This document shows, in pieces, positions 127-45,611 of a DNA stretch of 64,000 nucleotides. The notes beneath the pieces are model-generated. The model saw only the letters and a list, made by a program, of their open reading frames with translations, searched no databases and was not told where the DNA came from. Both the position numbers and the translations under genes were made by a program. The stretch comes from Escherichia phage vB_EcoM_SA35RD: the sequence record OL960577.1. One strand, given 5' to 3'. Numbering within the stretch: position 1 is the stretch's first letter; each line of letters opens with the position of its first letter.

Positions 127-151
127 TTTGTTCCTATTGTTTTAATTTATG

Positions 152-466: not shown

Positions 467-496
467 TTTTGTTTCCTTGTTTGTTTTGATAGAGTA

Positions 497-526
497 ATTA
501 TACCATATTAATACTTAAGCGTAAAC
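497..526 (-). promoter_or_regulatory. early sigma70-type promoter (GTTTAC-18-TATAAT)
   Basis: Minus strand: -35 GTTTAC (521..526), -10 TATAAT (497..502). Confidence 0.55.
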
Positions 527-529
527 AAT

Positions 530-790
530 TTAAGCTTTACCGCCAGAAATAATTCCGAAGTTGTTAAAATCGTATCCAATATCGTCAACATCTACTTTAG
601 GACTTGCTGCAACATAAGCAATTTCACTACGTTTTGCATAGGTGTTGATTTCTTTACCATCGCCACCTAAGAAAGAATACCCATTACGTTTTAATGAGCC
701 AAAGTCTTCCGCATCACCAATGAAAGCTTTAACTTTAAATTTGGGGTCTTTGGCATCTGATTCAGCGATAAATTCTTGATACATTTTCAT
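530..790 (-). CDS. internal-protein-like head protein (CTS-bearing), 86 aa
   Basis: ORF starts MKMYQEFIAE; tightly packed between the previous IP gene and denV. Confidence 0.6.
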   Translation of the reverse strand: MKMYQEFIAESDAKDPKFKVKAFIGDAEDFGSLKRNGYSFLGGDGKEINTYAKRSEIAYVAASPKVDVDDIGYDFNNFGIISGGKA

Positions 791-796
791 TTTTCC

Positions 797-1222
797 TTAG
801 TAAATTGATTTACCATAGTATTTGTACCAAGTCGGACGTTGAGCAATTTTTTCATCTAAGCGTGCTTGACTTATCGCAATGGACGCTTCGGACGGGTCAT
901 AATTATTACGAAATTCGGCAGGGATGTCGGAAATATCCTGGACTGTCGTGTCCTTGATTTTGAAACCACGTTTCAAGCATTCAGCGATTAGCTCGATTTG
1001 ACGTAAACGTAAAAATTCGAGTTTGTCGTAAAAGAATGTTACGTGACCTGTGCCTAAGATAAATGTTGGAGAGATTTTAAAATCCTTTACACGTTTACCG
1101 TTTTGAACATGTTTACGGACTGCACCAAATACGCGTGGTAATTCACGATACTCAGCCATAAGATGTTGGTCGGACAGTTCAGAAACAAGTGTTAAATTGA
1201 TACGAGTCATAATTTCCTCCAA
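797..1222 (-). CDS. denV: endonuclease V, pyrimidine-dimer DNA glycosylase/AP lyase
   Basis: 141 aa; [12 protein letters not shown]...[16 protein letters not shown]...[22 protein letters not shown] is near-identical to T4 endonuclease V as recalled. Confidence 0.9.
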
Positions 1223-1237
1223 GTAGTTGATGAATGT

Positions 1238-1267
1238 ATAGTATCAAAACCCTTGGAGGAAGTAAAC
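1238..1267 (-). promoter_or_regulatory. early promoter cassette upstream of denV, inside a 9-bp inverted repeat
   Basis: -35 GTTTAC (1262..1267), 18 bp, -10 TACTAT (1238..1243); inverted-repeat arms 1215..1223 and 1252..1260. Confidence 0.5.
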
Positions 1268-1268
1268 A

Positions 1269-1550
1269 CTATTTTTCTGAAGCGCCTGAAATATATTTTT
1301 CAAGACGTTGTTTCATCAGCGAGCCGTTCTTAGCGATTTCTTCTGGTTTATCGCACATACGCAACAAGGCTTCAAGCTTAGCGATATCGCTGGTACGTTC
1401 AAATTTGCGAGTATCTATCTTACTAGCAAGTTCAGAAATACGTGCTAATAGACTTTCAGCTTCAACCAAAGCTGCACCTAGCTTAGTTGCAAATGTGTCA
1501 GTAGCTTCGTTAAGAATAGATTCTGATAAAAATTCACTATATGTTTTCAT
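1269..1550 (-). CDS. internal-protein-like (CTS-bearing), 93 aa
   Basis: Internal ATG at 1550 gives [10 protein letters not shown]; ATG overlaps the lysozyme stop (ATGA); the 1565 start adds a 5-aa extension not compatible with a CTS. Confidence 0.55.
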
Positions 1551-2035
1551 ATATACGCTTTCCAAGTTCCTGTTTTAAATGTTGAGATTACGCGTTTCGC
1601 GCGATTAGGTGTCTGACGATACCATTTAGATTGAGCTAGATTTACTGCCGCTTCATCCCAACGTTTCTGTTTAAGCATACGAAGAGAATTAGTAAAACCG
1701 GCGACTCCTGCTACACCCATTTGGAAGACCATATTGACCAATGCACACCGACGAACTGCATCTAAAGAATCATATACCGGTTTAAGTTTAGCATTACCCA
1801 AGATTCCGCGAACGGCTTTATCAACGTCTTCATTAAATAGCTTTTCAGCCTCATCAAGGGTAATTGTACCGTTGCATTTACGACCGATCATTCTGTCAAG
1901 TTCAGCTTTAGCTACGGCTAAAGACGGGTTCTTTGTTACCAAGTGGCCTATGCCAATCGTCCAAAAGCCTTCAGTGTCTTTGTATAAAGTCAGTCTAAGA
2001 CCTTCGTCATTACGAAGCATTTCAAATATATTCAT
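1547..2035 (-). CDS. e: lysozyme (endolysin), T4 gene e homolog
   Basis: [32 protein letters not shown]... aligns along full length with T4 lysozyme; ATG at 2035 with SD GGGAGG; the track's 2047 start is GTG. Confidence 0.95.
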
Positions 2036-2059
2036 AATACCTCCCACGTTTATAGGAGA

Positions 2060-2067
2060 TATTTATT
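2060..2067 (-). promoter_or_regulatory. possible variant late promoter (AATAAATA) at the gene e RBS hairpin
   Basis: Minus strand reads GTAATAAATATCTCCTATAAACGTGGGAGGTATTATG; one mismatch to TATAAATA; a transcript start here would fall inside the 5' arm of the SD-sequestering hairpin. Confidence 0.3.
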
Positions 2068-2069
2068 AC

Positions 2070-2528
2070 TTATAGGATAGTAGTGAGCACCTTATATAAT
2101 GATTTGCCCATCACATATTCCCATTGAGAAGGTTTAATTAAAGCGAACGCATCAAATTCAGGAATCTGTCGTCCGTCTGGGAATGTATGATAGGAATTAC
2201 AAGCACTGTTTCTGAATTGCTCGTGCTCTACAGGGATGGTATATAGGAACAGATGAATATTCTTATTGTCTGAGTAATGATGTTCACCTAGGTCTTTCAG
2301 GAAGGCAGGGTCATATTGTGTAAACCCAGTTTCTTCTTCGCATTCGCGAATAGCGGCTTCAATAGGAGATTCACCGGGCTCGACACGTCCTTTAGGAATA
2401 TCCCAGCGATGAGCTAAAGAACCTTTAGGACGAGAACCAGTTACACGCCCCATGAATAATTCTTTATCTTCGGTAAGGAAAATAATACCGGCTGATAGTT
2501 CTTTCACTTTATTTTTCTTACTCATCAT
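2070..2528 (-). CDS. nudE: Nudix hydrolase (NudE/e.1-like)
   Basis: 152 aa; Nudix box GRVEPGESPIEAAIRECEEETG; position immediately upstream of e as in T4. Confidence 0.85.
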   Translation of the reverse strand: MMSKKNKVKELSAGIIFLTEDKELFMGRVTGSRPKGSLAHRWDIPKGRVEPGESPIEAAIRECEEETGFTQYDPAFLKDLGEHHYSDNKNIHLFLYTIPVEHEQFRNSACNSYHTFPDGRQIPEFDAFALIKPSQWEYVMGKSLYKVLTTIL

Positions 2529-2754
2529 CTCGGTCCCATGATTTGGCCATTAATTCGGACATAAATTCTTCAATGCGCGTTTCTTTAGATGGACTTTCAC
2601 TATTAGAGACCGCAAGTTTGTAATCTGCAATAGGACAGAACATATCAAGATCCGTATTAAGGTCGTCTTTGATTTTTTCTTCTGACACATCTTTATCGTA
2701 TGTGTACAGATAACTATCACATGATTCTGATTTAATGTAAATTGCTATACTCAT
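2518..2754 (-). CDS. hypothetical small acidic protein
   Basis: ORF; start chosen at ATG 2754 (MSIAIY), which overlaps the stop of the upstream gene as ATGA. Confidence 0.5.
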   Translation of the reverse strand: MSIAIYIKSESCDSYLYTYDKDVSEEKIKDDLNTDLDMFCPIADYKLAVSNSESPSKETRIEEFMSELMAKSWDRDDE

Positions 2755-3242
2755 CTCAAATTCCTGCATTCAGTAATAAAACATTCAACTTCGTTATTCT
2801 TGGCCTTTATCTTGTCTTTACGTTCCTGTAAACTACTTTTAACAAGATTAATAATGATGCCTACAGTACCTCCACCAATTATACCGCCAATTATACTTAC
2901 GATAGCAGATGCTAATAAGATAGCAATAATATCAACAAAACCGAAAGAACTCACCTTAGTACTAAAAAACCATACCGACGGTACAAATATAATCCATCCT
3001 GTTATCCATTGGCACTTATTGAAAAACTTTTCAAGATCAGCTTGAGTTGTTCGTATTACTTCATCGATAGGTTGATATCCATTAATGTATCTGTTCACGA
3101 TAATACCTGCTGGTTTGTCGATTTTAAATTCTTGGCAAATACGTTTCACTAAGTAGGATGGACATCCTGTCCAATCCACTGAATAGTACGAAATACCTTC
3201 ATTGCCGTCGTCAATATTAGACCAATATGTTTTGTTAATCAT
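2751..3242 (-). CDS. small membrane protein, FIxECR-tail family
   Basis: 163 aa; hydrophobic segments WIIFVPSVWFF and IIAILLASAIVSIIGGIIGGGTVGIII; C-terminus ECFITECRNLR. Confidence 0.6.
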   Translation of the reverse strand: MINKTYWSNIDDGNEGISYYSVDWTGCPSYLVKRICQEFKIDKPAGIIVNRYINGYQPIDEVIRTTQADLEKFFNKCQWITGWIIFVPSVWFFSTKVSSFGFVDIIAILLASAIVSIIGGIIGGGTVGIIINLVKSSLQERKDKIKAKNNEVECFITECRNLR

Positions 3243-3928
3243 TACCAGCCTTCCATAGGGAATTCCAGATAAACTTGGGCATTGACGCGAATTTCATTGG
3301 TAATCTTTTTAACTCGGTCTGTATTACGAGATACACGTCCGAACCAACGCCATCCATTACTAATTGCACGAGAACCAGTGTGCCATGTTTGCCAATCAAA
3401 CTGAAGAAGAGTACGGTCTGGAGCTTCCCATTTCTCTAGTTCGCCTTTTTCGATTTTTTCGAGGACTTCTTTGTGCCACTGGCGATAGATAAGTTCGCCA
3501 TCAGGAATCTGACTGAACTCTGCAGTTCCTGTTGCAAAATGAGTAGGACACACATCAGCGTTAACAAGACCAAGAATATGTTCAGACAAATAGCGAGGAT
3601 TGTCATAGTCAGGTTGTCCTGCAGTAATAAAATGTTGACCAACCGGAATATCCGGGCGTGGTACGTCATCATGGTGATAACCTGGGATAGCAGGATACCA
3701 ACCAGGCATCAGCATGTGGACTCGTGAATCAAATACAACCTGGTCGGTGTTCCAATCATCTGGCAAGTTCATAATGAAAGAGCGAGTAATAGGACCGCCG
3801 TTATTATAAGCAAATTCTAAACTACAGTTGAAGAACATAGGCTCGTTCTTGATTTTATCATTAGAAATACCGCCGGCAAAACCACCTACTGCACGAGCTT
3901 GACTATTAAACACTTTAGAACTATTCAT
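3242..3928 (-). CDS. hypothetical protein, 228 aa
   Basis: Long ORF with SD GAGGAAAA; no confidently recognised domain. Confidence 0.6.
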   Translation of the reverse strand: MNSSKVFNSQARAVGGFAGGISNDKIKNEPMFFNCSLEFAYNNGGPITRSFIMNLPDDWNTDQVVFDSRVHMLMPGWYPAIPGYHHDDVPRPDIPVGQHFITAGQPDYDNPRYLSEHILGLVNADVCPTHFATGTAEFSQIPDGELIYRQWHKEVLEKIEKGELEKWEAPDRTLLQFDWQTWHTGSRAISNGWRWFGRVSRNTDRVKKITNEIRVNAQVYLEFPMEGW

Positions 3929-3929
3929 A

Positions 3930-4235
3930 TTATTTTCCTCGACATTCTTTAATGAAATTTTCTAGATTGGTAGATTCAATAGCTTTTTTACGAGCTTCTG
4001 CGTGTTCTTCTTCGGACAATTTACGTTTATAATTGACCCAGACATTATGGTCGAAACCAGTCGTGGCATATAATAACAATGCTCCAACGAATAGCAAAAA
4101 CGGCGATAAGAATACAAAACCAGGAACACCATCCATATCGTAAGCCTTTTGTAATACTGCAACAGAAAGAGTTGCGTAAAAAGGTGATGCAAGTATTGTT
4201 AAAAGACCAATTCGATTGGTTTCTGTTAATTTCAT
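3930..4235 (-). CDS. small membrane protein, FIxECR-tail family
   Basis: 101 aa; two hydrophobic helices; C-terminus ENFIKECRGK; SD GAGGAG; early promoter at 4267..4296. Confidence 0.6.
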   Translation of the reverse strand: MKLTETNRIGLLTILASPFYATLSVAVLQKAYDMDGVPGFVFLSPFLLFVGALLLYATTGFDHNVWVNYKRKLSEEEHAEARKKAIESTNLENFIKECRGK

Positions 4236-4266
4236 AATATTCTCCTCATGTTTTAATAGGACTACT

Positions 4267-4296
4267 ACTATAACATAGTCCTATCAGTTTGTACAC
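4267..4296 (-). promoter_or_regulatory. early promoter cassette with palindrome around the -10 (PeSL-like)
   Basis: -35 GTGTAC, 18 bp, -10 TATAGT; 8-bp inverted repeat ATAGGACT/AGTCCTAT (4257..4264 and 4278..4285). Confidence 0.5.
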
Positions 4297-4497
4297 TTAT
4301 TTTGACATTTCTTCGATGTCACGACGATACCCATCACGAACTTCACGAAGAGCTTCAAGGCCACACATAGGCTCGATACCAGTAATGTGAACTTGATTAA
4401 TCTGATACTCTACATCTTCTAACTGAGCGAAAACATAACGACGTTCTGCTGCACAACCAGGTTTAGCTTTACCGAAACGTTTATTCAAAGTAGTCAT
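4297..4497 (-). CDS. hypothetical small protein
   Basis: Start at ATG 4497 (MTTLNKRFGK) with SD GGAG, downstream of early promoter 4536..4565. Confidence 0.45.
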   Translation of the reverse strand: MTTLNKRFGKAKPGCAAERRYVFAQLEDVEYQINQVHITGIEPMCGLEALREVRDGYRRDIEEMSK

Positions 4498-4535
4498 TTT
4501 TATATCTCCATTCACTCATTTGTTTTGATAGGTCT

Positions 4536-4565
4536 ATAGTATCAACAACTACAGACCTTGTAAAC
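4536..4565 (-). promoter_or_regulatory. early promoter cassette (PeSL-like)
   Basis: -35 GTTTAC, 18 bp, -10 TACTAT; flanking inverted repeat AGGTCT/AGACCT. Confidence 0.5.
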
Positions 4566-4577
4566 TGTTTTGTGAAA

Positions 4578-5534
4578 TTATTTGAAAGGTTTTACCATAT
4601 GAAAGTTTTGTTTGAAACGCTTGACGTAATCGTCGTGTCCTAAGCTTTGGTACATACTTACTACTTTGCTATAATTTTCCCAAGCGAACTCACGGAACCA
4701 TCCTGATGTGATTGATGTACAGACCTTTTCAAGGGCCATCATAAAACTATCACGTGGATGGATTTTAAAGTCGTTAGGAATCTGAGAACGTTCTAATGCT
4801 AGTACACATGATTCTTCATATACACCGGCCAATTTGACCATTTCTGGTAATGATTCGAACTTCTCGCGTGAGGTCATGACTTCAGAACCATCTTTCATGT
4901 AAAATGTATAAGCCGGACGGTCTGTTAGTGCAATAGCTTCGTGAATAGTATCATGGTCATATGTATAGATGTCATCTTTAAAGAACGCACTTTTAGAAGT
5001 GTCAAGAACAGGGTGAGCATAGTTCAAGGTTTCTTTCTGGCGTTTCAGCATAATTTCAGTAAGTTCATCGTTCAGTTTAACACCTTTACCACGAAGATAC
5101 TGAATATGGTTCATAGTCTTTAAAAAGAATGGATTATTTTTCTTGAAACGATGAGACATCTTAATTGCAAGACATATCTCAGGAGTTGCCCAGTAAAACC
5201 CGTTCAAACGGTCTTTAGTCAAATTTTTCTTGGCGTATTTTAAAAGGTCATAAGAAGACGTGAAATCTTCAGGAGTGAGTTCACCGACTAATTCACGGAC
5301 ACTAGTGATTGCCGGAACAATATATGCTTCAAAATGAGTTTCGCGTCCATTATGGAAGCATTTGAAAACTTGGACATCAGGGTTATCTTGGTGAACATAT
5401 ACACCCATCATTTGATTTTTGAATGCATTCCAAGAACCTTGGTCCGCAATAAAGTCCCAATCACTATTTTTAATAGCGCTAGAATCAATAAGACCGTGAT
5501 AGTGAAGTGCACGAGAACCAATAACTAACATCAT
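4578..5534 (-). CDS. hypothetical protein, possible nucleotidyltransferase fold
   Basis: 318 aa; N-terminal LVIGSRALHYHG...DWDF resembles the GS...DxD motif of Pol-beta-type nucleotidyltransferases (ANT-like); fold call is tentative. Confidence 0.65.
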   Translation of the reverse strand: MMLVIGSRALHYHGLIDSSAIKNSDWDFIADQGSWNAFKNQMMGVYVHQDNPDVQVFKCFHNGRETHFEAYIVPAITSVRELVGELTPEDFTSSYDLLKYAKKNLTKDRLNGFYWATPEICLAIKMSHRFKKNNPFFLKTMNHIQYLRGKGVKLNDELTEIMLKRQKETLNYAHPVLDTSKSAFFKDDIYTYDHDTIHEAIALTDRPAYTFYMKDGSEVMTSREKFESLPEMVKLAGVYEESCVLALERSQIPNDFKIHPRDSFMMALEKVCTSITSGWFREFAWENYSKVVSMYQSLGHDDYVKRFKQNFHMVKPFK

Positions 5535-5562
5535 AATATTTTCCTCGGATTAATTCATTAAC

Positions 5563-5802
5563 TTAAATTTCACGACATGCGATATTATATTCATCCCAGA
5601 GGTCATCATGTGAAGCCTCTACCAATGGAACGATTGTACCGTTTATGTCTTCATTATAAGGGCAAATTGTACAGTGCGCATCTTCGAATCGGATGCCTTT
5701 GTGTTCAGATTTTTTATAACGCATATCGAATATCTTTGCAAACTTTTCACGAGTAATGGTTTTACCAACCACTTTGGTTCCGATACTTTCGTAATAAATC
5801 AT
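5563..5802 (-). CDS. hypothetical small protein
   Basis: Start at ATG 5802 (MIYYES), which has SD GGAG; ends ...NIACREI; early promoter at 5831..5860. Confidence 0.5.
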   Translation of the reverse strand: MIYYESIGTKVVGKTITREKFAKIFDMRYKKSEHKGIRFEDAHCTICPYNEDINGTIVPLVEASHDDLWDEYNIACREI

Positions 5803-5830
5803 TGTGGACTCCATTTGTTTTGATAGGACT

Positions 5831-5860
5831 ACTATAACATAGCCCTATCTTGTTGTAAAC
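5831..5860 (-). promoter_or_regulatory. early promoter cassette (PeSL-like)
   Basis: -35 GTTTAC, 18 bp, -10 TATAGT; inverted repeat GATAGGGCT/AGTCCTATC around the -10. Confidence 0.5.
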
Positions 5861-5864
5861 TGTT

Positions 5865-6062
5865 TTAGCAAGAATAACTAGATGATACCCAGCCTTGAAC
5901 AGTGATACTATTGTGGGATAATGAGATCGCGTCCTGGAGATTCAGACCTGCGTTATCTTCAATCCATAATGTAACTTCTTCGCGTTCTTCTGTTGCAATT
6001 TGGAACAGGTTTTCCAGAGCAGCTACTGCCGTACGTACAGCACAATCTAATTCACGAGACAT
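5865..6062 (-). CDS. small protein, GWVSSS..C-tail family
   Basis: 65 aa; C-terminus QGWVSSSYSC; SD AAGGAA. Confidence 0.55.
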   Translation of the reverse strand: MSRELDCAVRTAVAALENLFQIATEEREEVTLWIEDNAGLNLQDAISLSHNSITVQGWVSSSYSC

Positions 6063-6071
6063 ATTGTTTCC

Positions 6072-6344
6072 TTAGCAAGTGTGAGAAGATGCGACCCAAC
6101 CACCAGTTTCGAGGCTCAGGTTGTAGTCGTATTGGTAAACGTCAGCCCATTCAGCATAGCCATTTTTTGTACAACGTTCAAGATCGGCTTTAAGATGTCC
6201 GGGTGAATGATAGGTTCCACCCATACCGTAAGCTGGATACAAGTCGAATGTTGTGTTTTGTTTATCAGCAATTTCTTTGGCAGCCTCAATAGCTGCATAG
6301 ATTTTTGCTACAGCTTCAGCCAGTTCGGTTTGTTCTTTAGACAT
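6072..6344 (-). CDS. small protein, GWVSSS..C-tail family
   Basis: 90 aa; C-terminus GGWVASSHTC; shares KEIAD...YG.GGTYH core with the next paralog. Confidence 0.6.
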   Translation of the reverse strand: MSKEQTELAEAVAKIYAAIEAAKEIADKQNTTFDLYPAYGMGGTYHSPGHLKADLERCTKNGYAEWADVYQYDYNLSLETGGWVASSHTC

Positions 6345-6353
6345 AATGATTCC

Positions 6354-6659
6354 TTAGCACAACGCAGAAGACGAAACCCAAGCACCTTCAGTAATAACGT
6401 AACCATTACCTTCACGCTTAACATCGCCACCATTATTTTCAATTTCATCTTTCATCCACTGGGATACGATTTCACCCTTAGGATAATAAGTACGACCGCT
6501 ACCATAATCACCTACAGAAAATGATACGGCATATTGGTCTGCGATCTTTGTTGCTTCTTCTTCGATACGTTCAGCTTGATTCAGAAGTTTATAAATTGCA
6601 TCTGAAGCGGATTTGGCATTATTAAACTCTGGTACTTTAATTTCAATAATCTTACTCAT
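6354..6659 (-). CDS. small protein, GWVSSS..C-tail family
   Basis: 101 aa; C-terminus GAWVSSSALC; ATG overlaps the upstream stop (ATGA). Confidence 0.6.
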   Translation of the reverse strand: MSKIIEIKVPEFNNAKSASDAIYKLLNQAERIEEEATKIADQYAVSFSVGDYGSGRTYYPKGEIVSQWMKDEIENNGGDVKREGNGYVITEGAWVSSSALC

Positions 6660-7015
6660 TTTCTACATTCCTTAATAAAGTTTTCGATTGTTTCATTTTC
6701 ACGTCTAGCTAGGAGTTCATTATAACTAATCATTTGAGAAGCGTAAACCTTTTTATTTTTCTTGTTATGGTTTATAAAATCGTAGTAAAAATAGACTACA
6801 GTACAAAATGATGCGATGGATGCAAAGGCTTGGGTATACCGTAAGTCCTGCCATTGGTCTGTGAATCCACCAGTGTTCCCTATAAATCCTAACACAACGC
6901 CGTCAATAAGAAATCCAACTAATCCAAAGGCAAATCCCATGCCAATACTCATAATAAAAATTAGAATGTTCTCACCAAGAGAAGGCCATACGGTTAAGAG
7001 TTGAGGCTTTTGCAT
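6656..7015 (-). CDS. small membrane protein, FIxECR-tail family
   Basis: 119 aa; hydrophobic helices; C-terminus IENFIKECRK. Confidence 0.6.
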   Translation of the reverse strand: MQKPQLLTVWPSLGENILIFIMSIGMGFAFGLVGFLIDGVVLGFIGNTGGFTDQWQDLRYTQAFASIASFCTVVYFYYDFINHNKKNKKVYASQMISYNELLARRENETIENFIKECRK

Positions 7016-7389
7016 CTTATTTCCTTAACGAATTCCATAGCTTCTTCATATTCATACTTTTTAATAGCTTCATCATACTGAGCTTGGGCTTTTGCGCACT
7101 GAACTTTCCATTCTCTTAATCGGGCTCTGTGATGACGGCCTTGGTGCCAATATCCCACCCAATTAATAGGCATTAATAAAAACGGTACAATAAGTGGTGC
7201 GACGAACATTAATGAAAATGCTGCATCAGACGATATAACTTCACTAGAATCTAAAACAGCTCCTATAATCATAAAGATTAAAAATGCTAAAGCTAAAATA
7301 GGGCCAAATAGTACTTCATTTGGGATTAATTTACGCTTGTATTCATACGCCCAGGGCTTACTTGGCATGTATAGGGTTGGCTTTGACAT
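6994..7389 (-). CDS. small membrane protein, FIxECR-like tail
   Basis: Start at ATG 7389 (MSKPTLY) directly after the conserved GAATGTAGAGAAT junction motif; two hydrophobic helices; tail MEFVKEIRCK. Confidence 0.55.
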   Translation of the reverse strand: MSKPTLYMPSKPWAYEYKRKLIPNEVLFGPILALAFLIFMIIGAVLDSSEVISSDAAFSLMFVAPLIVPFLLMPINWVGYWHQGRHHRARLREWKVQCAKAQAQYDEAIKKYEYEEAMEFVKEIRCKSLNS

Positions 7390-7954
7390 ATTCTCTACAT
7401 TCCATAATAAATTGCTCAAGGATTAAATTGTTAGTGAAATTAGGACTAACAACCATAGTTTCATAAAGCGCATCAATAGCACTTAAAGCATCAACTCTTT
7501 TAAGCAAAGGCTTGCCTTCATACATAGTTTCAGAATCGACGATTAAAGTGAAGTAGTATTTTTTATTATTGGCCAGAACTTCTGTATCAATATAAAACAT
7601 GTTAGACCTTAAAAGCTTGTCTCTAAAGCCTACGTAATCATCTGAACGTTCACTGATATATTCCCATTCGGTGTTTAAACAACAAACAGACCACGTAGGA
7701 GCAACGAAATCAGTGAATCTAATATCATGGTCTGCAACTAGTTTAGCAATAGCTCCGATATCATGAATCATAATACCTGGGGCTAATAAAGATTTTCGGT
7801 TATTTGCATATTCAGTTGTCTCATAAGAAGACGACCAGTACCATTTACGTCCAGTTGCAACATATCGTAATGAATCAACTAAAGACGTAGGTGGATTTAC
7901 CTTATCTCGGAACTCTTCGAACATTGAGTCAATATCATTATTTTGGTTTCGCAT
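7358..7954 (-). CDS. hypothetical protein with FIxECR motif near C-terminus
   Basis: Start at ATG 7954 with SD AAGGAG; ...EQFIMECREYVKANPIHAK; 3' end overlaps the next gene by 32 nt. Confidence 0.6.
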   Translation of the reverse strand: MRNQNNDIDSMFEEFRDKVNPPTSLVDSLRYVATGRKWYWSSSYETTEYANNRKSLLAPGIMIHDIGAIAKLVADHDIRFTDFVAPTWSVCCLNTEWEYISERSDDYVGFRDKLLRSNMFYIDTEVLANNKKYYFTLIVDSETMYEGKPLLKRVDALSAIDALYETMVVSPNFTNNLILEQFIMECREYVKANPIHAK

Positions 7955-7973
7955 GTTAACTCCTTTATTATCC

Positions 7974-7995
7974 AAAAGGAGGACCGGGGTCCTCC
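7974..7995 (-). terminator. rho-independent terminator
   Basis: GGAGGAC-CGGG-GTCCTCC hairpin followed by TTTT on the minus strand, just after the stop of the 8004..8597 gene. Confidence 0.6.
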
Positions 7996-8003
7996 GTATT
8001 ATT

Positions 8004-8597
8004 TTATTTCAAAGAGTTAATATATTCTTGTACATCAGCAGAAGTGGTTTCGACACCTGCTGGAGTGCCATTGAACGTTTCAACCCGAGTCAGAGTGTCT
8101 TCGATATCAACCTTAGTCAGTGCAGCGATTTCAATTACATCATCGGCCGTAGAGATACCAAGGGCATTAGCTGCTCGAGTTTCACGAATGTATTCGAGTT
8201 TGATTGCCAGATTCTGACGAGCATCATCAAGTTCAACCACCTTACGAGCAATTTCAATTCGCATAGCGGCATACCCGTCAGCTTTTGTATTAAGTTGTTC
8301 GGCAGTTCGACGATACAGAAGACCAAGCTTAGCATGCATGGTAACATCTTGTCCTTCAGCCAGGAGCTTACGAATTTCACGTTCCTTAGAAGCGGCTTGC
8401 TTGTTCTTTTCAATAACAAGTTCGCGAATACGTTTTTCTTCATTAATAGATTTAACAGAAGCCGTTTTTAGTTCTTTGATTTGGGTAATCAACTTATCTG
8501 CAGCTGCGTTATACTGTTCTTCGACAGTCAGATTTTTAGCCATAGCAGTACCCAGTTTAGTGCGAATGAATTCAACAAGTTTCTTCAGTGTGTTCAT
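8004..8597 (-). CDS. coiled-coil protein, PspA/IM30-like (tentative)
   Basis: 197 aa; heptad-rich and Ala/Glu/Lys/Arg-rich; layout resembles PspA as recalled; early promoter at 8639..8668; terminator at 7974..7995. Confidence 0.6.
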
Positions 8598-8638
8598 ATT
8601 ATTACCTTTCAATTGGTGGTTTATTATCCAACGAGAGC

Positions 8639-8668
8639 ATTATACTCTGCTCTCAAGAGTTTGTACAC
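8639..8668 (-). promoter_or_regulatory. early promoter cassette (PeSL-like)
   Basis: -35 GTGTAC, 18 bp, -10 TATAAT; inverted repeat GAGAGC/GCTCTC (8633..8638 and 8649..8654). Confidence 0.55.
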
Positions 8669-8917
8669 TTATTTGTACGAATTAATAATCTCTTCCATTT
8701 TATCCAGAACATGGATATCGATTATACGAGGAAGTGCCGAAAGATTAGAACCGTCGAAAGATTTAAGGTCTTCCAAAATAATATTTTCAATGGCCTTTAA
8801 AGCTTCCGCAGATTCTGATGCAGAATTAAATTCAGGAATTTCTCCAAAAAGACGTAAGAATGAACCAAAGTATTCTGCGGCGATTTCTTTAGCTTGTTCG
8901 ATATCAGACTTAAACAT
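8669..8917 (-). CDS. hypothetical small acidic protein
   Basis: Start at ATG 8917 (MFKSDIEQ), chosen because the promoter -10 at 8946..8951 lies inside the longer ORF. Confidence 0.5.
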   Translation of the reverse strand: MFKSDIEQAKEIAAEYFGSFLRLFGEIPEFNSASESAEALKAIENIILEDLKSFDGSNLSALPRIIDIHVLDKMEEIINSYK

Positions 8918-8945
8918 TTTGTTTTCCTCATTTGTTGGTGGAGTA

Positions 8946-8975
8946 ATCATATCACCATCCTTGGCGTTTGTACAT
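8946..8975 (-). promoter_or_regulatory. early promoter candidate (weaker match)
   Basis: -35 ATGTAC, 18 bp, -10 TATGAT. Confidence 0.35.
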
Positions 8976-9202
8976 TATTTTTTAATCAAGTTGACATAAA
9001 ATTCTGCATCTTCAGGGTGCATGCCTTCGCAGTATTCTTCAACCATGAACTTCTTAACAGCTTCATAAGGACCACTCAGATTAAGCTCAGTTGTCCAGAA
9101 CTTGGAATCTTGGACTGAATCGATATGAACTTCAGGGTGTCGGTTGCGAATAACTTCTTCGGTGTATTCATAATCAACGACATCAATACTAACTTTAGCC
9201 AT
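8975..9202 (-). CDS. hypothetical small protein
   Basis: 75 aa ORF; SD GAGGAAAA; promoter at 9231..9260. Confidence 0.55.
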   Translation of the reverse strand: MAKVSIDVVDYEYTEEVIRNRHPEVHIDSVQDSKFWTTELNLSGPYEAVKKFMVEEYCEGMHPEDAEFYVNLIKK

Positions 9203-9230
9203 TTTATTTTCCTCTTGATTTGATGTGATT

Positions 9231-9260
9231 ACTATAACATAAACTTACTTAGATGTAAAT
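9231..9260 (-). promoter_or_regulatory. early promoter candidate
   Basis: -35 ATTTAC, 18 bp, -10 TATAGT. Confidence 0.4.
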
Positions 9261-9413
9261 TATTTCAACGTCACCTTTAGCTGCTTTATAACCTTCAGCC
9301 CAAGATACAACAGAGTTTTTATCCGAGGATTCAAATTCAGGCATTGGACTTTCACCAATATTCACACAGTATGTTTCTTCATTTTCATCGAACCAAATAA
9401 TTAAAGTAGTCAT
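9249..9413 (-). CDS. hypothetical small protein (54 aa, absent from the ORF track)
   Basis: Own translation MTTLIIWFDENEETYCVNIGESPMPEFESSDKNSVVSWAEGYKAAKGDVEIIYI; SD AGAGGAG; promoter at 9444..9473. Confidence 0.45.
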   Translation of the reverse strand: MTTLIIWFDENEETYCVNIGESPMPEFESSDKNSVVSWAEGYKAAKGDVEIIYI

Positions 9414-9443
9414 TTTGTTTACTCCTCTGTAGTTGATAAGTCT

Positions 9444-9473
9444 ATAGTATCACCATCCTTGGTGCTTGTACAT
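9444..9473 (-). promoter_or_regulatory. early promoter cassette, part of the 47-bp module shared with 45531..45577
   Basis: -35 ATGTAC, 18 bp, -10 TACTAT; block 9407..9453 is identical to 45531..45577. Confidence 0.5.
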
Positions 9474-9480
9474 CATTATT

Positions 9481-9786
9481 TTATTTTTTCCAACTCAACA
9501 ACTTGTAATGTCCTTCATTCGTACGTGGTTTATCCCAAGAAATACTAATATATGATTCGCTGTCAATAGAAGTCGCCGGGTTTTTCTCTACCGTAAGACC
9601 TTCACTTTCCAGCCATTCAATAGTATTTGCGCATAAATCGGAAGAACACCTCATCGGGAACCGGCAAGATTTTTCACCTTTAGATGCTGCATCGTACATC
9701 TTTTCCAAAATACGCTTTTGCACGTTTTTAAAAATAGTTTCAGCAGATTCTTCAGATTTTTTATTCAGTTCAGTGTAAAGACTCAT
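9481..9786 (-). CDS. hypothetical small protein
   Basis: 101 aa; promoter at 9815..9843; several Cys residues. Confidence 0.55.
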   Translation of the reverse strand: MSLYTELNKKSEESAETIFKNVQKRILEKMYDAASKGEKSCRFPMRCSSDLCANTIEWLESEGLTVEKNPATSIDSESYISISWDKPRTNEGHYKLLSWKK

Positions 9787-9814
9787 AACATTTTCCTCTA
9801 TGGTTGATAAGTCT

Positions 9815-9843
9815 ATAGTATCATGTCCTTAGAAGAAGTAAAC
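9815..9843 (-). promoter_or_regulatory. early promoter cassette
   Basis: -35 GTTTAC, 17 bp, -10 TACTAT; downstream TAGACTTATCAAC core shared with 9444 and 45568. Confidence 0.5.
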
Positions 9844-9876
9844 ATCTTTATGAAATATTTTTATGCCCTAGATACC

Positions 9877-9903
9877 AAAAGGCCCCAACCATAAGGAAGG
9901 GGC
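9877..9903 (-). terminator. rho-independent terminator
   Basis: GGCCCC/GGGGC stem followed by TTTT on the minus strand, after the 9910..10374 gene. Confidence 0.55.
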
Positions 9904-9909
9904 ATTCTA

Positions 9910-10374
9910 TTATTTAATTTGTTTAGCAGACCAGATACGGTCTTTAATAAGTTTTTGGATATCTTCAACATACTCAAGGCTATGAGCGTGAGGATTATCT
10001 TTGAAGCTATGTGCTCGTGCCAGTTTCTGGCCTTCTGTTTTGATTACTAAAAGCTCTTTAAGAATTGCTTCATACTTAGAAATAATTCCTTTGGCGATAT
10101 TTTTTTCTTGAGCTGCTTTAGGGTCTGTTTTTGGCGCAGGTGCTTTACCTGTAGCTTTCTGGAACAATTCACCTGATGCAGCTAGGCTTTTAAAAACTCG
10201 GCTAACAGTATTAGCATTAGTAAAACCTTCGGCTTTAAAATCTCTAATAAAACGGAAACGTTCTTCATCAGAGGCGTCTTTGTAAGAATATTTACCTGCT
10301 TGAATTGCTGCAATCGCAGCGGCTTTTACATCTGAACTAGATTGTTCAGTCAAAAATTCAGCGTATGATTTCAT
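9910..10374 (-). CDS. internal-protein-like (CTS-bearing) basic protein, 154 aa
   Basis: Starts MKSYAEFLTE (CTS-like); Lys/Ala-rich; flanked by rho-independent terminators at 9877..9903 and 10419..10447. Confidence 0.6.
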   Translation of the reverse strand: MKSYAEFLTEQSSSDVKAAAIAAIQAGKYSYKDASDEERFRFIRDFKAEGFTNANTVSRVFKSLAASGELFQKATGKAPAPKTDPKAAQEKNIAKGIISKYEAILKELLVIKTEGQKLARAHSFKDNPHAHSLEYVEDIQKLIKDRIWSAKQIK

Positions 10375-10418
10375 GTTGCTTTTCCTAAGTTAATTAACTT
10401 ATCTATTTATTATTATGC

Positions 10419-10447
10419 CAAAAAGCCCCGACCTTTCGGAAGGGGCT
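10419..10447 (-). terminator. rho-independent terminator closing the tRNA/structured-RNA transcription unit
   Basis: AGCCCC-loop-GGGGCT hairpin followed by TTTTT on the minus strand. Confidence 0.6.
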
Positions 10448-10454
10448 AAGCCTT

Positions 10455-10750
10455 GCGGCAACCTTGTCGGGGTTTCCACCTACTAAGGCAAGTGTTTGTA
10501 CGAAACGCCGGGATTCGAACCCGGTTATCAAGTAGTTGACGCTACTCAATATTTTTAAAAGGCCATATCTCGACCATATCCGAACGTTCCGTCAAAAACG
10601 CTACTCGGCTTACGGCAAAGATATTTCCTCGAATCGATAATTCGGTGCGCCGTTTCTGCTGTGATGTAAGGGGATATTAACAAATCGTAAAGATTTATTA
10701 AGACCAGTCCTTACTCAGGGAACATCAGTCCGACGACTTACCGGTAGCGA
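10455..10750 (-). ncRNA. candidate small stable RNA region (T4 rnaC/rnaD-like position), tRNA-like T-arm at 10508..10524
   Basis: About 300 bp without a credible ORF between the 10760 gene and the terminator at 10419..10447; contains CCGGG-TTCGAAT-CCCGG plus a 7-bp acceptor-like strand, but I could not complete a cloverleaf. Confidence 0.3.
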
Positions 10751-10759
10751 CCCGGCTTC

Positions 10760-11104
10760 TTATTTTGGCATATCATCAATTTGCTCTCGACGCCGACGCC
10801 ATAGATTAATCGCTTCATTAACACATTCGGCGTTTGGTATATGACGGCAATAATATAATGATTCGCGTTTCTGGAACCGATGTTGCAATGGAATTTCGTT
10901 TAAAAGGTCTTTACGGTCAAAGTATTCAAAACTAGTTAACCCAGAACGATTTTTAATGAACTTCCAATGTCCAAATTCATTTTGAACATAGATGTAATCG
11001 GCATGCTGATACAGCAAATTAATCAATCGATGAGAAATAACTGTATCATATTCGTTAAAATAAAACGTTAAATCATGAACTACCAGATAAATATTGCCTT
11101 TCAT
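10760..11104 (-). CDS. hypothetical protein between the tRNAs and the structured-RNA region
   Basis: Start at ATG 11104 (MKGNIYLVVHDL) with SD GAGGAAAA; the longer 11152 start would overlap tRNA-Arg. Confidence 0.45.
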   Translation of the reverse strand: MKGNIYLVVHDLTFYFNEYDTVISHRLINLLYQHADYIYVQNEFGHWKFIKNRSGLTSFEYFDRKDLLNEIPLQHRFQKRESLYYCRHIPNAECVNEAINLWRRRREQIDDMPK

Positions 11105-11122
11105 ATTTTCCTCACTTGAAGT

Positions 11123-11199
<77 letters not shown>

Positions 11200-11205
11200 A
11201 ATATA

Positions 11206-11279
11206 TGACCCAGACCAGATTCGAACTGGTAACCTTTCCCTTATGAGGGGACTGCTGCTAACCATTGAGCTACAGGGCC
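11206..11279 (-). tRNA. tRNA with anticodon CAU (Ile2 or Met type), no encoded CCA
   Basis: Manual fold: acceptor GGCCCTG/CTGGGTC (one U-U mismatch), anticodon loop CTCATAA, T-arm ACCAG-TTCGAAT-CTGGT; D-stem only 3 bp, so slightly irregular. Confidence 0.6.
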
Positions 11280-11341
11280 TAAATAACTTTCTATTATGAA
11301 AGGCACTTTAGAGCACCTTTGGTAATAGAGGGTATGAATTA

Positions 11342-11366
11342 ATAATATCACATTATTCTTAAAGCA
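11342..11366 (-). promoter_or_regulatory. candidate MotA-dependent middle promoter upstream of the tRNA genes
   Basis: Minus-strand MotA box TGCTTTA (11360..11366), 12 bp, -10 TATTAT. Confidence 0.35.
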
Positions 11367-11874
11367 AATCAATCATTTTAACAGTCGGCAAAACGATTTC
11401 TTCTTCAATATAAGCGAATTCAACACGTTCAACTACACGCAAGAAATCATAGTCGTAGTATTCAGAAGCATAGCCAAGAATATCAATAAGGCCTTTGGAT
11501 ACCTCATCACCTTTCACAAAGAACAGGTCGAATACACGGGCTTCGTCTTCTTCAGATTTATCGCCAAGGTCAACTTCAATACCAAAGACCTTTTTAATGA
11601 ATTCCGGCTGGAGCTGGTCAGAGAACAGTCCTTCAACCAGATATTCGTAGATAATAAGCGAGCAACGACCGAATGGCGTATTACCACAGTAACGTTCGGC
11701 TTTAGTGCTGGAATGACGACTCTTAAATTTCTTCAAGAGATATTTAAACTGTTGGAGCTCATGCTCTTCTACACCAAATAATGTTTTGGTTTTATAGTTG
11801 TCACCGTCATTTTCCCAAGTAGTGACATCAATTACGTAACCCTTAGGAATTGTACTGCCTAAACAAATATTCAT
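11359..11874 (-). CDS. hypothetical protein, 171 aa
   Basis: ORF upstream of the tRNA pair; acidic; no recognised motif. Confidence 0.6.
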   Translation of the reverse strand: MNICLGSTIPKGYVIDVTTWENDGDNYKTKTLFGVEEHELQQFKYLLKKFKSRHSSTKAERYCGNTPFGRCSLIIYEYLVEGLFSDQLQPEFIKKVFGIEVDLGDKSEEDEARVFDLFFVKGDEVSKGLIDILGYASEYYDYDFLRVVERVEFAYIEEEIVLPTVKMIDLL

Positions 11875-11878
11875 TTAC

Positions 11879-12169
11879 TCACCTTACCATATTAATGTAA
11901 TTATATTCAATGCAACGCAATTTCAAAGGATTCTTGAAAATATCATATTCAAGAGGGCCTTTTTCTGTTTCAATAAAGAAATCAAAGTTAACTGTGTTAA
12001 ATTTATCATCTTCACATAGTAATTTAACCTGTGAAGATGAACGGTCGATATAAACCTTTTCAACCTCAAAGTTAGTCAGAATACCGTAGTCATCGACTAG
12101 TGCTTTAGCTGCACGTTGATCGCTTTCATATCCATTCTCAATGGACGATACTTTAGCATAAAGAATCAT
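11879..12169 (-). CDS. hypothetical protein, 96 aa
   Basis: ORF tightly packed with neighbours. Confidence 0.55.
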   Translation of the reverse strand: MILYAKVSSIENGYESDQRAAKALVDDYGILTNFEVEKVYIDRSSSQVKLLCEDDKFNTVNFDFFIETEKGPLEYDIFKNPLKLRCIEYNYINMVR

Positions 12170-12528
12170 GAATGTTCCACCACTTCAAAAGTATGTGCAC
12201 TGACAATCTGGTACCAGTCAAAATTTTCTTCAGCATTTTTGTAGATTTCACGAAGAGCTTCAACAGTTTTTCCTGTAGCAACAAGGTCGTCAATACCACC
12301 AAGAGGATAACAGTCATAACCAGCAAACAGAAGGAAATTAATAGTTTCTGTAGGTTCTTGATGCAGTGTACCATTGTCATCGACTACTTCAAAGAACATA
12401 TAACCAGGCGATTTAGATTTAATCCAAGCCCATGCTTGAGCTGCTGAATCAAATGGTTTGCGTATCAAACGACAATCAGGATCTTTAGAAGGATTTGCTT
12501 CAAAATCCGCATATACGTGATATTTCAT
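12166..12528 (-). CDS. hypothetical protein, 120 aa
   Basis: Start at ATG 12528 (MKYHVYADFE), abutting the upstream stop. Confidence 0.5.
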   Translation of the reverse strand: MKYHVYADFEANPSKDPDCRLIRKPFDSAAQAWAWIKSKSPGYMFFEVVDDNGTLHQEPTETINFLLFAGYDCYPLGGIDDLVATGKTVEALREIYKNAEENFDWYQIVSAHTFEVVEHS

Positions 12529-12529
12529 T

Positions 12530-12736
12530 TTACTCACCTTTTGCAATTTTATCCATAACAATAGCGATTAAACCGATTAGAAATGCTACTACCAATGAGA
12601 TAGAATTTTCGGTTGTTGTCAGTAGTCCGCAAATGAATCCTACAAACATCGAAAAACTAAAAGCCATTGAAGCAATTACTACAGCAACATTACGAATCAG
12701 TTCAGCGCGTTTCATTTTATTTCTCCATTTACTCAT
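12530..12736 (-). CDS. small membrane protein, 68 aa
   Basis: Basic N-terminus then VAVVIASMAFSFSMFVGFICGLL and LVVAFLIGLIAIVM helices; promoter at 12754..12783. Confidence 0.55.
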   Translation of the reverse strand: MSKWRNKMKRAELIRNVAVVIASMAFSFSMFVGFICGLLTTTENSISLVVAFLIGLIAIVMDKIAKGE

Positions 12737-12753
12737 TTTGTTTTGATAGGACT

Positions 12754-12783
12754 ACTATAACATAGTCCTATCGTGTTGTAAAC
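12754..12783 (-). promoter_or_regulatory. early promoter cassette (PeSL-like)
   Basis: -35 GTTTAC, 18 bp, -10 TATAGT; inverted repeat GATAGGACT/AGTCCTATC (12745..12753 and 12764..12772). Confidence 0.5.
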
Positions 12784-12786
12784 TAC

Positions 12787-13074
12787 TTACAGAAGAGTTT
12801 TTGCAATAATTTTAAGCTGAGCTACAGAAATGTGCTTAGTTTTAAACAGTGCAGTCTCTTCAGCCGGAGAGATAACAATAGTAGCGCCATCTTTCTTAGC
12901 AGACCATCCATCCCCTAAGTAAACAGTACCTTTTACTTCTTCGCCGTCAACCAGACTAATCATTGGTTTACCCTCACGTCCTTTATTTGCTTTAATAACT
13001 TCGGAAGTAAGGGTTGCTTCGGTTAGAGTAGAAACGTTAGCATCAGGTGATATAAATTCTTTATAGGTTTTCAT
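12787..13074 (-). CDS. ipI: internal protein I-like (CTS-bearing), 95 aa
   Basis: Starts MKTYKEFIS; sits immediately downstream of 57B as ipI does in T4; promoter at 13109..13138. Confidence 0.6.
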   Translation of the reverse strand: MKTYKEFISPDANVSTLTEATLTSEVIKANKGREGKPMISLVDGEEVKGTVYLGDGWSAKKDGATIVISPAEETALFKTKHISVAQLKIIAKTLL

Positions 13075-13108
13075 TTTATTTCCTTGAGGTCGTTTATTTG
13101 ATAGGATG

Positions 13109-13138
13109 ATAGTAACACGTCATCATCCTTATGTAAAC
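13109..13138 (-). promoter_or_regulatory. early promoter cassette (PeSL-like) upstream of the ipI-like gene
   Basis: -35 GTTTAC, 18 bp, -10 TACTAT; inverted repeat GGATGAT/ATCATCC. Confidence 0.5.
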
Positions 13139-45215: not shown

Positions 45216-45239
45216 TCTTAATTGATTAAATCTTATTTT

Positions 45240-45264
45240 GGGAGACTTCGGTCTCCCATTTTTG
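45240..45264 (+). terminator. rho-independent terminator after gene 23
   Basis: GGGAGAC-TTCG-GTCTCCC hairpin followed by ATTTTTGGTTTT. Confidence 0.75.
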
Positions 45265-45267
45265 GTT

Positions 45268-45537
45268 TTATTTCTGTGCAATTTTGATGTAAGTTTTCAA
45301 AATATTTTGCCAATTAGGCATACCTTCTTGGACATACGCTGGAGAACCGTCTTTGTTTTTGAATGATGCAAGTTTATCAGTGGCCCAATAACCTTTAGCT
45401 CGAGCTTCAGAATCAACTTTCATCCATACTTTGTTGAAGGCATTACCATTAACTTTTGCACCATATTTTTCTACTAACTTAACTGCTTCAGCTTCTAGAA
45501 CTTTTAAAGTATCTCGTAAGAAACGTGCTTTAGTCAT
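45268..45537 (-). CDS. hypothetical small basic protein in the gene 23-24 intergenic slot
   Basis: 89 aa (MTKARFLRDTLK...); own early-promoter cassette at 45568..45597; opposite strand to the flanking late genes. Confidence 0.55.
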   Translation of the reverse strand: MTKARFLRDTLKVLEAEAVKLVEKYGAKVNGNAFNKVWMKVDSEARAKGYWATDKLASFKNKDGSPAYVQEGMPNWQNILKTYIKIAQK

Positions 45538-45567
45538 TTTGTTTACTCCTCTGTAGTTGATAAGTCT

Positions 45568-45597
45568 ATAGTATCACATACCAAATACGTTGTAAAC
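45568..45597 (-). promoter_or_regulatory. early promoter cassette within the late-gene block
   Basis: -35 GTTTAC (45592..45597), 18 bp, -10 TACTAT (45568..45573). Confidence 0.5.
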
Positions 45598-45603
45598 AAT
45601 CTT

Positions 45604-45611
45604 TATAAATA
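45604..45611 (+). promoter_or_regulatory. late promoter TATAAATA for gene 24
   Basis: Exact match 28 nt upstream of the ATG. Confidence 0.7.

Follow-up and report, generated by a model that had tools for sequence, protein, structure and literature searches.

A 47-bp block that occurs twice, 36 kb apart and in direct orientation, in Escherichia phage vB_EcoM_SA35RD (OL960577.1) is probably a duplicated T4-type early core-promoter/leader patch that drives two unrelated genes and also serves as a recombination joint. The source phage is a Mosigvirus (RB69-like, T4-type), and our analysis covers a stretch of 64,000 nucleotides of its genome, hereafter the window. We interpret the block as the downstream half of a T4-type early (sigma-70) promoter fused to a translation initiation region, and as a likely member of a family of early promoter/leader cassettes dispersed across the Tevenvirinae. 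Under the preferred reading, homologous recombination or gene conversion would have carried a copy of the -16 to +31 patch between the e-tRNA hyperplastic region and the slot that separates genes 23 and 24. The copying would have taken place in an ancestor of the sampled Mosigviruses, where the patch would have joined two resident -35 halves and two unrelated small early genes.

Identity of the two blocks and their relatives in the window

An exact search of the window placed the 47-mer TAGTCATTTTGTTTACTCCTCTGTAGTTGATAAGTCTATAGTATCAC at exactly two sites, both on the plus strand as written (block copies 1 and 2 in Table 1). The copies match at 47/47 positions, which bears out the identity of two loci claimed in the initial annotation, and 100 dinucleotide-preserving shuffles contained no match to the 47-mer (chance expectation 0). 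Mismatch begins immediately outside the block at both ends, so that the identity is exactly 47 bp, and it extends 4 nt beyond the ATG into two unrelated genes. The loci had also been named correctly. Locus 1 lies in the e-tRNA region, among e.3-e.8, frd.3 and the tRNA genes, and locus 2 is flanked by major capsid gene 23 (43647-45215, plus strand) and vertex gene 24 (45639-46922, plus strand). The 23-24 region is 100% identical to that of phage EP32a and has matches in hundreds of Mosigvirus records.

An assembly or sequencing artefact, which the initial annotation had named as the circumstance that would overturn its reading, is of practically negligible probability. The same block is found at 237 places in 140 independent phage records, which implies that ~97 records hold two copies; these ~97 genomes, with the block at both loci, were sequenced independently in many laboratories, and locus-private SNPs and natural variants of the block also exist.

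Table 1 Features at and around the two block copies, with related modules in the window
Feature	Position	Strand	Description
Block copy 1	9407..9453	-	Predicted -16 to +31; RB69 orthologue predicted as early promoter Pe:72567
Block copy 2	45531..45577	-	Identical to copy 1; RB69 orthologue predicted as Pe:109605
Upstream half, locus-1 promoter	9454..9480	-	Spacer, -35 TGTACA 9472-9467, AT-rich; ends at stop codon of 101-aa ORF
Upstream half, locus-2 promoter	45578..45611	-	-35 TTTACA 45596-45591 and AT-rich region
orf54, 54-aa ORF (cargo 1)	9249..9413	-	phrog_5461, PHROGs family without known function; beside frd.3
orf89, 89-aa ORF (cargo 2)	45268..45537	-	phrog_6003, PHROGs family without known function; antisense between genes 23 and 24
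Copy 3, diverged, full cassette layout	9787..9913	-	Hairpin, -35, -10, core, SD, then ATG 9786 of 101-aa ORF
denV promoter/leader, fourth family member	1200..1270	-	29/47 with block in register
Module B, frd.3 early promoter/leader	9203..9262	-	TTTACA-17-TATAGT; RB69 Pe:72354
Promoter/leader of 93-aa ORF (8669-8950)	8925..8986	-	TGTACA-17-TATGAT; upstream half repeats that of locus 1
Gene-23 terminator hairpin	45239..45258	+	GGGAGACTTCGGTCTCCC, then T-run; distal end of 23-24 slot cassette; common to window, LF82-3 and JK45

We searched the window for modules consisting of a T4-type promoter, an SD and an ORF, which gave 17 candidates, mostly on the minus strand at 497-13109. Compared in the same 47-nt register, these modules share a mean of 20.5 positions per pair (sd 6.2), with 36 for the next-best pair and 47 for the block pair. 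Since the other modules share so much less, we conclude that the patch was copied, as the initial annotation had proposed, and that convergence cannot explain the identity. Convergence would have two independent early promoters arrive at the same optimal -10, leader and SD under selection, with no copying. The -10 features and the conserved ATCAA start region are common to all early promoters in the window, and the block is almost invariant over ~100 genomes, as such selection would predict. However, the other functional modules differ at more than half of the 47 positions, so most positions are not tied to one base, and selection on the signals does not account for identity that passes the ATG by 4 nt and stops abruptly on both sides. 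This explanation is therefore scarcely credible.

The core of the block has five copies in the window, and ~13 related minus-strand modules lie at 497-13109. The diverged relative reported close to locus 1 is real: in register (9778-9824), copy 3 is identical to the block at 33/47 positions (70%) and contains the exact 20-nt core GATACTATAGACTTATCAAC at 9822-9803. Its terminator-like GCCCC/GGGGC hairpin and U-run occupy 9872-9913, and its promoter, TTTACT-16-TACTAT, has the -35 at 9842-9837 and the -10 at 9820-9815. Weaker relatives of the block are found at 4524-4543 and, in the denV promoter, at 1201-1247. Inverted repeats are present in several family members. The denV module of the window has a 10-bp inverted repeat (TTCCTCCAAG/CTTGGAGGAA) by which the promoter spacer and the SD pair (RNA fold -19.4 kcal/mol, z -3.2), and inverted repeats of 10-11 bp bracket the -10 in sister modules at 12754, 5831, 4267 and 4536. 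The two identical block copies have no significant stem (z -0.9 and -1.4).

Predicted promoter, leader and cargo genes

Read on the minus strand, the block is G-TGA-TACTAT-AGACTT-A-TCAACTACAGAGGAGTAAACAAA-ATG-ACT-A, and thus holds the -10 TACTAT, short 5' UTR, SD (A)GAGGAG and ATG ACT that had been described in it. Copy 1 has an extended -10, TGA-TACTAT, with the hexamer at 9449-9444, the SD GAGGAG at 9427-9422 and the ATG at 9413-9411, followed by ACT A. The corresponding positions in copy 2 are 45573-45568 for the -10, 45551-45546 for the SD and 45537-45535 for the ATG, again followed by ACT A, and at both loci the SD is 8 nt upstream of the ATG. Because ATCAA is conserved 7 nt past the -10 in nearly all early modules of the window, we put the start site at A 9437 (locus 1) and A 45561 (locus 2). 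With this start site the block runs from -16 to +31 and the 5' UTR is 24 nt.

Both loci have the features of a T4-type early promoter, namely position and orientation directly 5' of an early-strand ORF, an A/T-rich upstream element, a GTTTAC-like -35 and a TAnnnT -10, as set out by Nolan et al. 2006. A consensus promoter scan identified the locus-2 promoter as TTTACA-17-TACTAT, with TG before the -10. The locus-1 promoter, TGTACA-17-TACTAT, has a variant -35; the scan missed it along with that of copy 3, since both match at only 8/12 hexamer positions, below the threshold. Nolan et al. 2006 (PMC1524935, Additional file 3) list the HMM-predicted RB69 early promoters Pe:72567, Pe:109605 and Pe:72354 and the late promoter Pl:109573. 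Both promoter orthologues are therefore included in that list, as coordinates only; in the text and supplementary files searched, PMC1524935 does not say that the two leaders are identical, that one locus was copied to the other or that either is tied to indels. From the sequence and this published RB69 prediction we infer the start site, the promoter and its early timing. Host RNA polymerase would then be expected to fire the block immediately on infection.

Outside the block, the upstream halves of the two promoters are specific to their locus and orthologous across phages. The locus-1 half is absent at locus 2 and is repeated at 8946-8986, 498 bp away, before the 93-aa ORF. The same half, TGTACA...CCAAGGA(T/C)GG, also precedes the orf54 homologue in Tequatrovirus RB3, where the leader is different and longer. 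The locus-2 half (GTTTAC) is conserved in LF82-3, and the region of its -35 and TATAAATA is similar in JK45 and VR7. Here the AT-rich region overlaps the gene-24 late promoter TATAAATA (45604-45611, plus strand), which has Pl:109573 as its RB69 counterpart. The initial annotation had described a copied promoter/leader module; this holds for the -16 to +31 patch common to both loci, but the -35 and the rest of the upstream half stay each locus's own. The copied DNA comprises a leader and only part of a promoter, and is not a self-contained unit that brings its cargo.

The two ORFs named as cargo are real, start inside the block and are mutually unrelated, with no similarity between orf54 and orf89 by BLASTP. 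orf54 is absent from SF, NHEP11, G2285 and LH01, and is 96-98% identical in Tequatroviruses of the T2/RB3 type. orf89 is a pseudogene in RB69, where frameshifts split it into ORF188c and ORF189c, and is frameshifted in mogra. Searches of the cargo proteins against NCBIfam gave no match, and the Pfam result for orf89 was a sub-threshold match to DUF4859. A single-sequence structure model of orf89 had a pLDDT of 64.7, too low for a meaningful fold search.

The leader shared by the two genes has no predicted RNA structure at either locus (z +0.7 and +0.3), and on these folding results a shared structure was rejected. RegB cuts GGAG sites in T4 early mRNAs, with the strong-site consensus GGAGRAYARAA. 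In our leader the GGAG, at 9425-9422 in copy 1 and 45549-45546 in copy 2, is predicted to be unpaired, and the A-rich context 3' of it, UAAACAA, fits 4/7 positions of the strong context. An open GGAG leader of this kind may give efficient translation and, at the same time, offer a plausible RegB cleavage site for later shut-off, as judged from its sequence.

These properties also bear on a different account of the identity, in which the transcribed part is a cis-acting operator (for example a RegB/S1 or RegA target) kept identical for post-transcriptional co-regulation. The GGAG followed by A-rich, unstructured sequence would suit such a target. SNPs in intact copies fall mostly at the 5' edge, at positions 1 and 4, and the copy with three internal SNPs belongs to the RB69 pseudogene, a pattern that also favors constraint on the transcribed part. 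Against this, EP32a and an IMG/VR contig tolerate SNPs next to the SD, the leader matches the strong RegB consensus only in part, the UAA repeats selected by RB69 RegA are missing from the block, and sister genes use different leaders. We consider an operator unlikely on balance, and it is compatible with the preferred reading of a copied promoter/leader patch, not exclusive of it.

Age of the copies and gene-content junctions

A 32-nt core of the block has matches in 774 phage records. By BLAST, the number of core places per genome is 3-6 in Mosigvirus, 12-15 in IME281, CLB_P2, E33 and ESCO10, and 3-5 in T4-like phages of Klebsiella. A scan of IMG/VR for the 20-nt core returned 3 loci, too few for a census of contexts, and we used the GenBank phage collection instead. 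One record flagged UNVERIFIED, OLB35, contains three tandem copies of promoter plus block together with chimeric ORF fragments; it was left out of the evidence.

We compared both block copies in seven further genomes with a mismatch scan. Each SNP in the block is confined to a single locus, namely locus 1 in EP32a, SCS57 and pEK20 and locus 2 in vB_EQ1, with a further case in an IMG/VR contig. The two RB69 copies differ at 3/47 positions, and all three SNPs are at locus 2, where the 89-aa gene is broken. This comparison of both copies gave no sign of ongoing homogenisation or concerted evolution of the two loci, and ongoing gene conversion was rejected on present evidence because every SNP is private to one locus. 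Since the block is common to ~100 genomes and its SNPs are confined to single copies, the copy event is old and predates the radiation of the sampled Mosigviruses. Low overall divergence together with purifying selection, which is relaxed in the RB69 pseudogene, best accounts for the lasting identity.

RB3 was the outgroup for orf54, and JK45 and VR7 were those for the 23-24 slot; their signals on the direction of copying conflict. The orf54 of RB3 also begins with ATGACTA, behind a different leader, so this start belongs natively to orf54, which favors locus 1 as the donor. In length and sequence the leader comes nearer to the JK45-type leader found in the 23-24 slot, which favors locus 2.

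Gain, loss and replacement junctions among close relatives fall inside promoter/leader modules at both loci. At locus 1, SF and NHEP11 are without orf54, and in both the block minus one T drives frd.3 directly, with the crossover close to the ATG. G2285 also is without orf54 and has a hybrid leader with a crossover point unlike that of SF and NHEP11. In SF/NHEP11 and in G2285, the block recombined with the frd.3 module (module B) in two separate, independent events. LH01 has frd.3 directly behind a variant of the block promoter. The adjacent 93-aa ORF cassette of ~305 bp, present in the window and missing from RB69 and SF, is bounded by direct TTTGTACA (-35) repeats, and the match of the closest relatives to the window ends at ~8966, within the promoter module of this ORF. 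The block itself does not change where phages differ in the gene upstream of it, which is either the 101-aa ORF or a 168-aa ORF, and each of two promoter-half haplotypes, agcacc and aacgcc, accompanies a different upstream gene. The SD/ATG of copy 3 is exactly where synteny with RB69 is lost.

At locus 2, the initial annotation had proposed to look for segD in the 23-24 slot of relatives, and this was positive for two Mosigviruses. In both LF82-3 and JK45 the slot contains segD together with an allele that is 33% identical to the 89-aa gene. LF82-3 retains the promoter/leader, being identical to the window through GGAG and continuing from there with the JK45-type allele and segD. The presence of segD in exactly this slot raises the possibility that the block is a by-product of a homing endonuclease, through double-strand-break repair started by SegD and co-conversion in the 23-24 slot, with no recombination between promoter modules. 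The LF82-3 mosaic is consistent with this, as one of its ends lies within the leader, and on its other flank the sequence past the gene-23 terminator is already different from that of the window. Such repair gives no account of the match to a locus 36 kb away without a seg gene, nor of the several module-bounded indels in the e-tRNA region, and we regard it as very improbable.

Our preferred reading, a copied patch that is also a joint, thus assigns the block a second job from genome comparison, in which it and its sister modules would supply short homologies for inserting, deleting and swapping small ORFs. As a caveat to this linker role, junctions would be enriched at gene boundaries anyway, as recombinants survive only with their genes intact. 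A more specialized possibility is that the block is a dedicated sequence-specific element, either an operator for an unnamed phage factor that co-regulates early accessory genes or a preferred recombination site for cassette exchange. If true, this would explain why two direct copies separated by 36 kb keep all 47 bp alike although they risk a lethal deletion, and an exchange site could put accessory genes even inside the conserved head-gene cluster. We give a dedicated element of either type little credence.

The copied patch reveals no new mechanism and is of modest specialist interest, as a clean example, repeated in nature, of the way in which small accessory genes travel in T4-like phages. 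In a single genus, one 47-bp core on different upstream halves drives orf54, frd.3, orf89, or a diverged orf89 allele with segD. It also flags orf54 and orf89 as early accessory genes worth testing. In practical terms, the engineering of Mosigvirus phages may profit from the block and its neighbors, as ready-made signals for strong early expression and as natural sites for insertion.

Comparison with known cassette systems

A close T4 counterpart of the block is the denV early promoter/leader. It reads TGATACTATAGACCTATCAACTACAGGAG, which agrees with the block core at 25/26 aligned bases and is followed by ATGACT, and T4 denV accounts for one place of the core. T4 denV has the same layout as denV in the window with a different stem sequence. 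The denV versions of the window, T4 and an IMG/VR contig all have an inverted repeat of 9-10 bp from spacer to SD (z about -3.1 to -3.2), whereas in the 47-bp pair the 5' arm is missing.

A comparison by outcome is offered by integron gene cassettes (attC/attI with an integrase), in that small, promoter-adjacent cassettes, each with a single ORF of unknown function, are gained and lost at defined joints. However, no integrase and no attC-like site is present here, exchange apparently proceeds via general homologous recombination of the phage between short regulatory homologies, and each phage cassette brings or reuses its own promoter. Circular intermediates are possible both for integron cassettes and for promoter-early stem-loops (PeSLs), for which circles have been proposed (Arbiol 2010, PMC2839356).

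PeSLs are the known elements that the block most closely concerns. They were described as "mobile regulatory cassettes" in RB49/phi1 and later in T4/PST and KVP40/nt-1. They combine AT-rich DNA and a stem-loop with an early promoter, an SD and an ATG, and are concentrated among small ORFs and located at indel junctions (PMC2839356; PMC4122927). Crossovers in PeSLs were mapped between the -10 and the SD/ATG, recombination in T4 needs <50 bp of homology, and inverse PCR revealed excised PeSL mini-circles (Arbiol et al. 2010, PMC2839356). The promoter consensus of the T4/PST PeSLs is TTTACW-N17-TAYWAT (Comeau et al. 2014, PMC4122927).

The modules described here share with PeSLs the succession of AT-rich stretch, -35, 17-bp spacer, -10, SD and ATG, with hexamers that fit TTTACW-N17-TAYWAT. 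Like PeSLs, they have a sigma-70-like early promoter with ~17-bp spacing, and the SD and start codon are at the 3' end of the element. Each genome again has several copies that resemble one another, lying among small early ORFs that are non-essential, and indel and replacement junctions coincide with them. The published crossover span, from the -10 to the SD/ATG, is the span of the 47-bp block. Two differences stand out. The defining stem-loop is missing from the two identical copies and is present in sister modules, and one block copy, that between genes 23 and 24, is embedded in the conserved head-gene cluster.

The block is thus at best a "half/degraded" PeSL in the terms of Comeau 2014, which behaves like a PeSL and is no full member of the class. 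It looks like the right half of a PeSL-type cassette grafted on two left halves that lack the complementary arm, an outcome to be expected of a crossover in the -10 loop. A literature search with both terms found no published link of PeSLs with RB69 or Mosigvirus. The block extends the PeSL idea to RB69-like phages, with a cassette that still marks joints without a stem-loop, one of them in the head-gene cluster. It represents a known kind of element, the PeSL-type reuse of early-promoter cassettes as joints, for which the RB69-like genus is new.

Gene content beside and between the block loci

The 54-aa ORF (orf54) had 96-98% protein identity to its counterparts in T2/RB3-type Tequatroviruses, a far higher degree of conservation than an ORF of unknown function would be expected to show. 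Several Mosigviruses nonetheless lacked it, and it was not among the T4 matches listed. The OLB35 record (MH992122.1), which is flagged UNVERIFIED, contained the locus 1 promoter with a block-like leader three times in tandem, and chimeric pieces of frd.3, orf54, and the 101-aa ORF separated the promoter copies. This arrangement is either a genuine recombination scar or a misassembly. Compared with RB69 and SF, the window had an insertion between frd.3 and the e.6 homologue that carried a 93-aa ORF and a TGTACA promoter for this ORF. The insertion was bounded by TTTGTACA direct repeats, and the segment was missing from the closest database relatives.

The 89-aa gene in the 23-24 slot was disrupted by frameshifts in RB69 (ORF188c/189c) and mogra, and the block copy beside the broken gene had three SNPs in RB69 and was intact in mogra. 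In the Mosigviruses LF82-3 and JK45, the 23-24 slot contained an 89-aa ORF allele with 33% identity, followed directly by a segD-like gene for a homing endonuclease, and the flank 3' of gene 23 likewise came from another lineage.

Six small early ORFs opened with a conserved coding motif at the N-terminus, MK(T/S)Y(Q/A)EF(I/L)TE. This common start suggests that their products are a paralogous family dispersed over the hyperplastic region.

Features of the window and of the comparison loci (L)
Feature	Coordinates	Strand	Remark
54-aa ORF	window 9249-9413; L022 (RB3) 901-1077		
OLB35 tandem promoters	L023 560-1080		
93-aa ORF	window 8669-8986		
Disrupted 89-aa gene	L005 (RB69) 2792-3032; L024 (mogra) 251-519		
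segD-like gene, 89-aa allele	L010 and L011 (LF82-3, JK45) 1501-2430		
N-terminal coding motif	window 97-129, 437-469, 761-793, 1521-1553, 10345-10377, 13045-13077	-	six small early ORFs
Gene-24 late promoter TATAAATA	window 45604-45611	+	opposite 89-aa ORF early promoter, 45591-45611 (-)
Locus 2 promoter/leader	window 45538-45604	-	
denV promoters	window 1200-1270	-	
denV promoters	L015 (T4 denV) 1178-1245; L003 (further denV locus) 6925-6995		
Second early promoter/leader subfamily	window 12725-12791, 5802-5868, 4238-4304, 4507-4573	-	inverted repeats

Overlapping promoters at locus 2

The AT-rich upstream region of the 89-aa ORF early promoter contained the gene-24 late promoter on the opposite strand, which places an early and a late promoter back to back on a common ~20 bp. 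Since the minus strand has no T-run after the gene-23 hairpin in the path of the 89-aa early transcript, this transcript may extend antisense into gene 23. A stretch of the locus 2 leader, GTAAACAA, was also the reverse complement of the -35 region TTGTTTAC, and the plus strand of the block could be read as GTTTAC...TATAGT with an overlong spacer (19-20 bp). Both the complementarity and the promoter-like reading are probably coincidental.

Early promoters with predicted stems

The SD region of the denV promoters was complementary to the promoter spacer (z about -3.1 to -3.2), pairing TTCCTCCAAG with CTTGGAGGAA in the window and CTCCTGTAG with CTACAGGAG in T4. Pairing was maintained among denV orthologues although the stem sequence varied. 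The SD is predicted to be sequestered in read-through transcripts and would be free in those from the internal promoter.

The early promoter/leader modules included a second subfamily, in which 10-11-bp inverted repeats flanked the -10 box on both sides (e.g., GATAGGACTA...TAGTCCTATC), with z as low as -3.7 for DNA folds. Two modules of this subfamily shared 93% identity across 54 nt (5808-5861 vs 12731-12784). With a stem overlapping the -10, the modules look like the promoter-early stem-loops (PeSLs) of the RB49 type.
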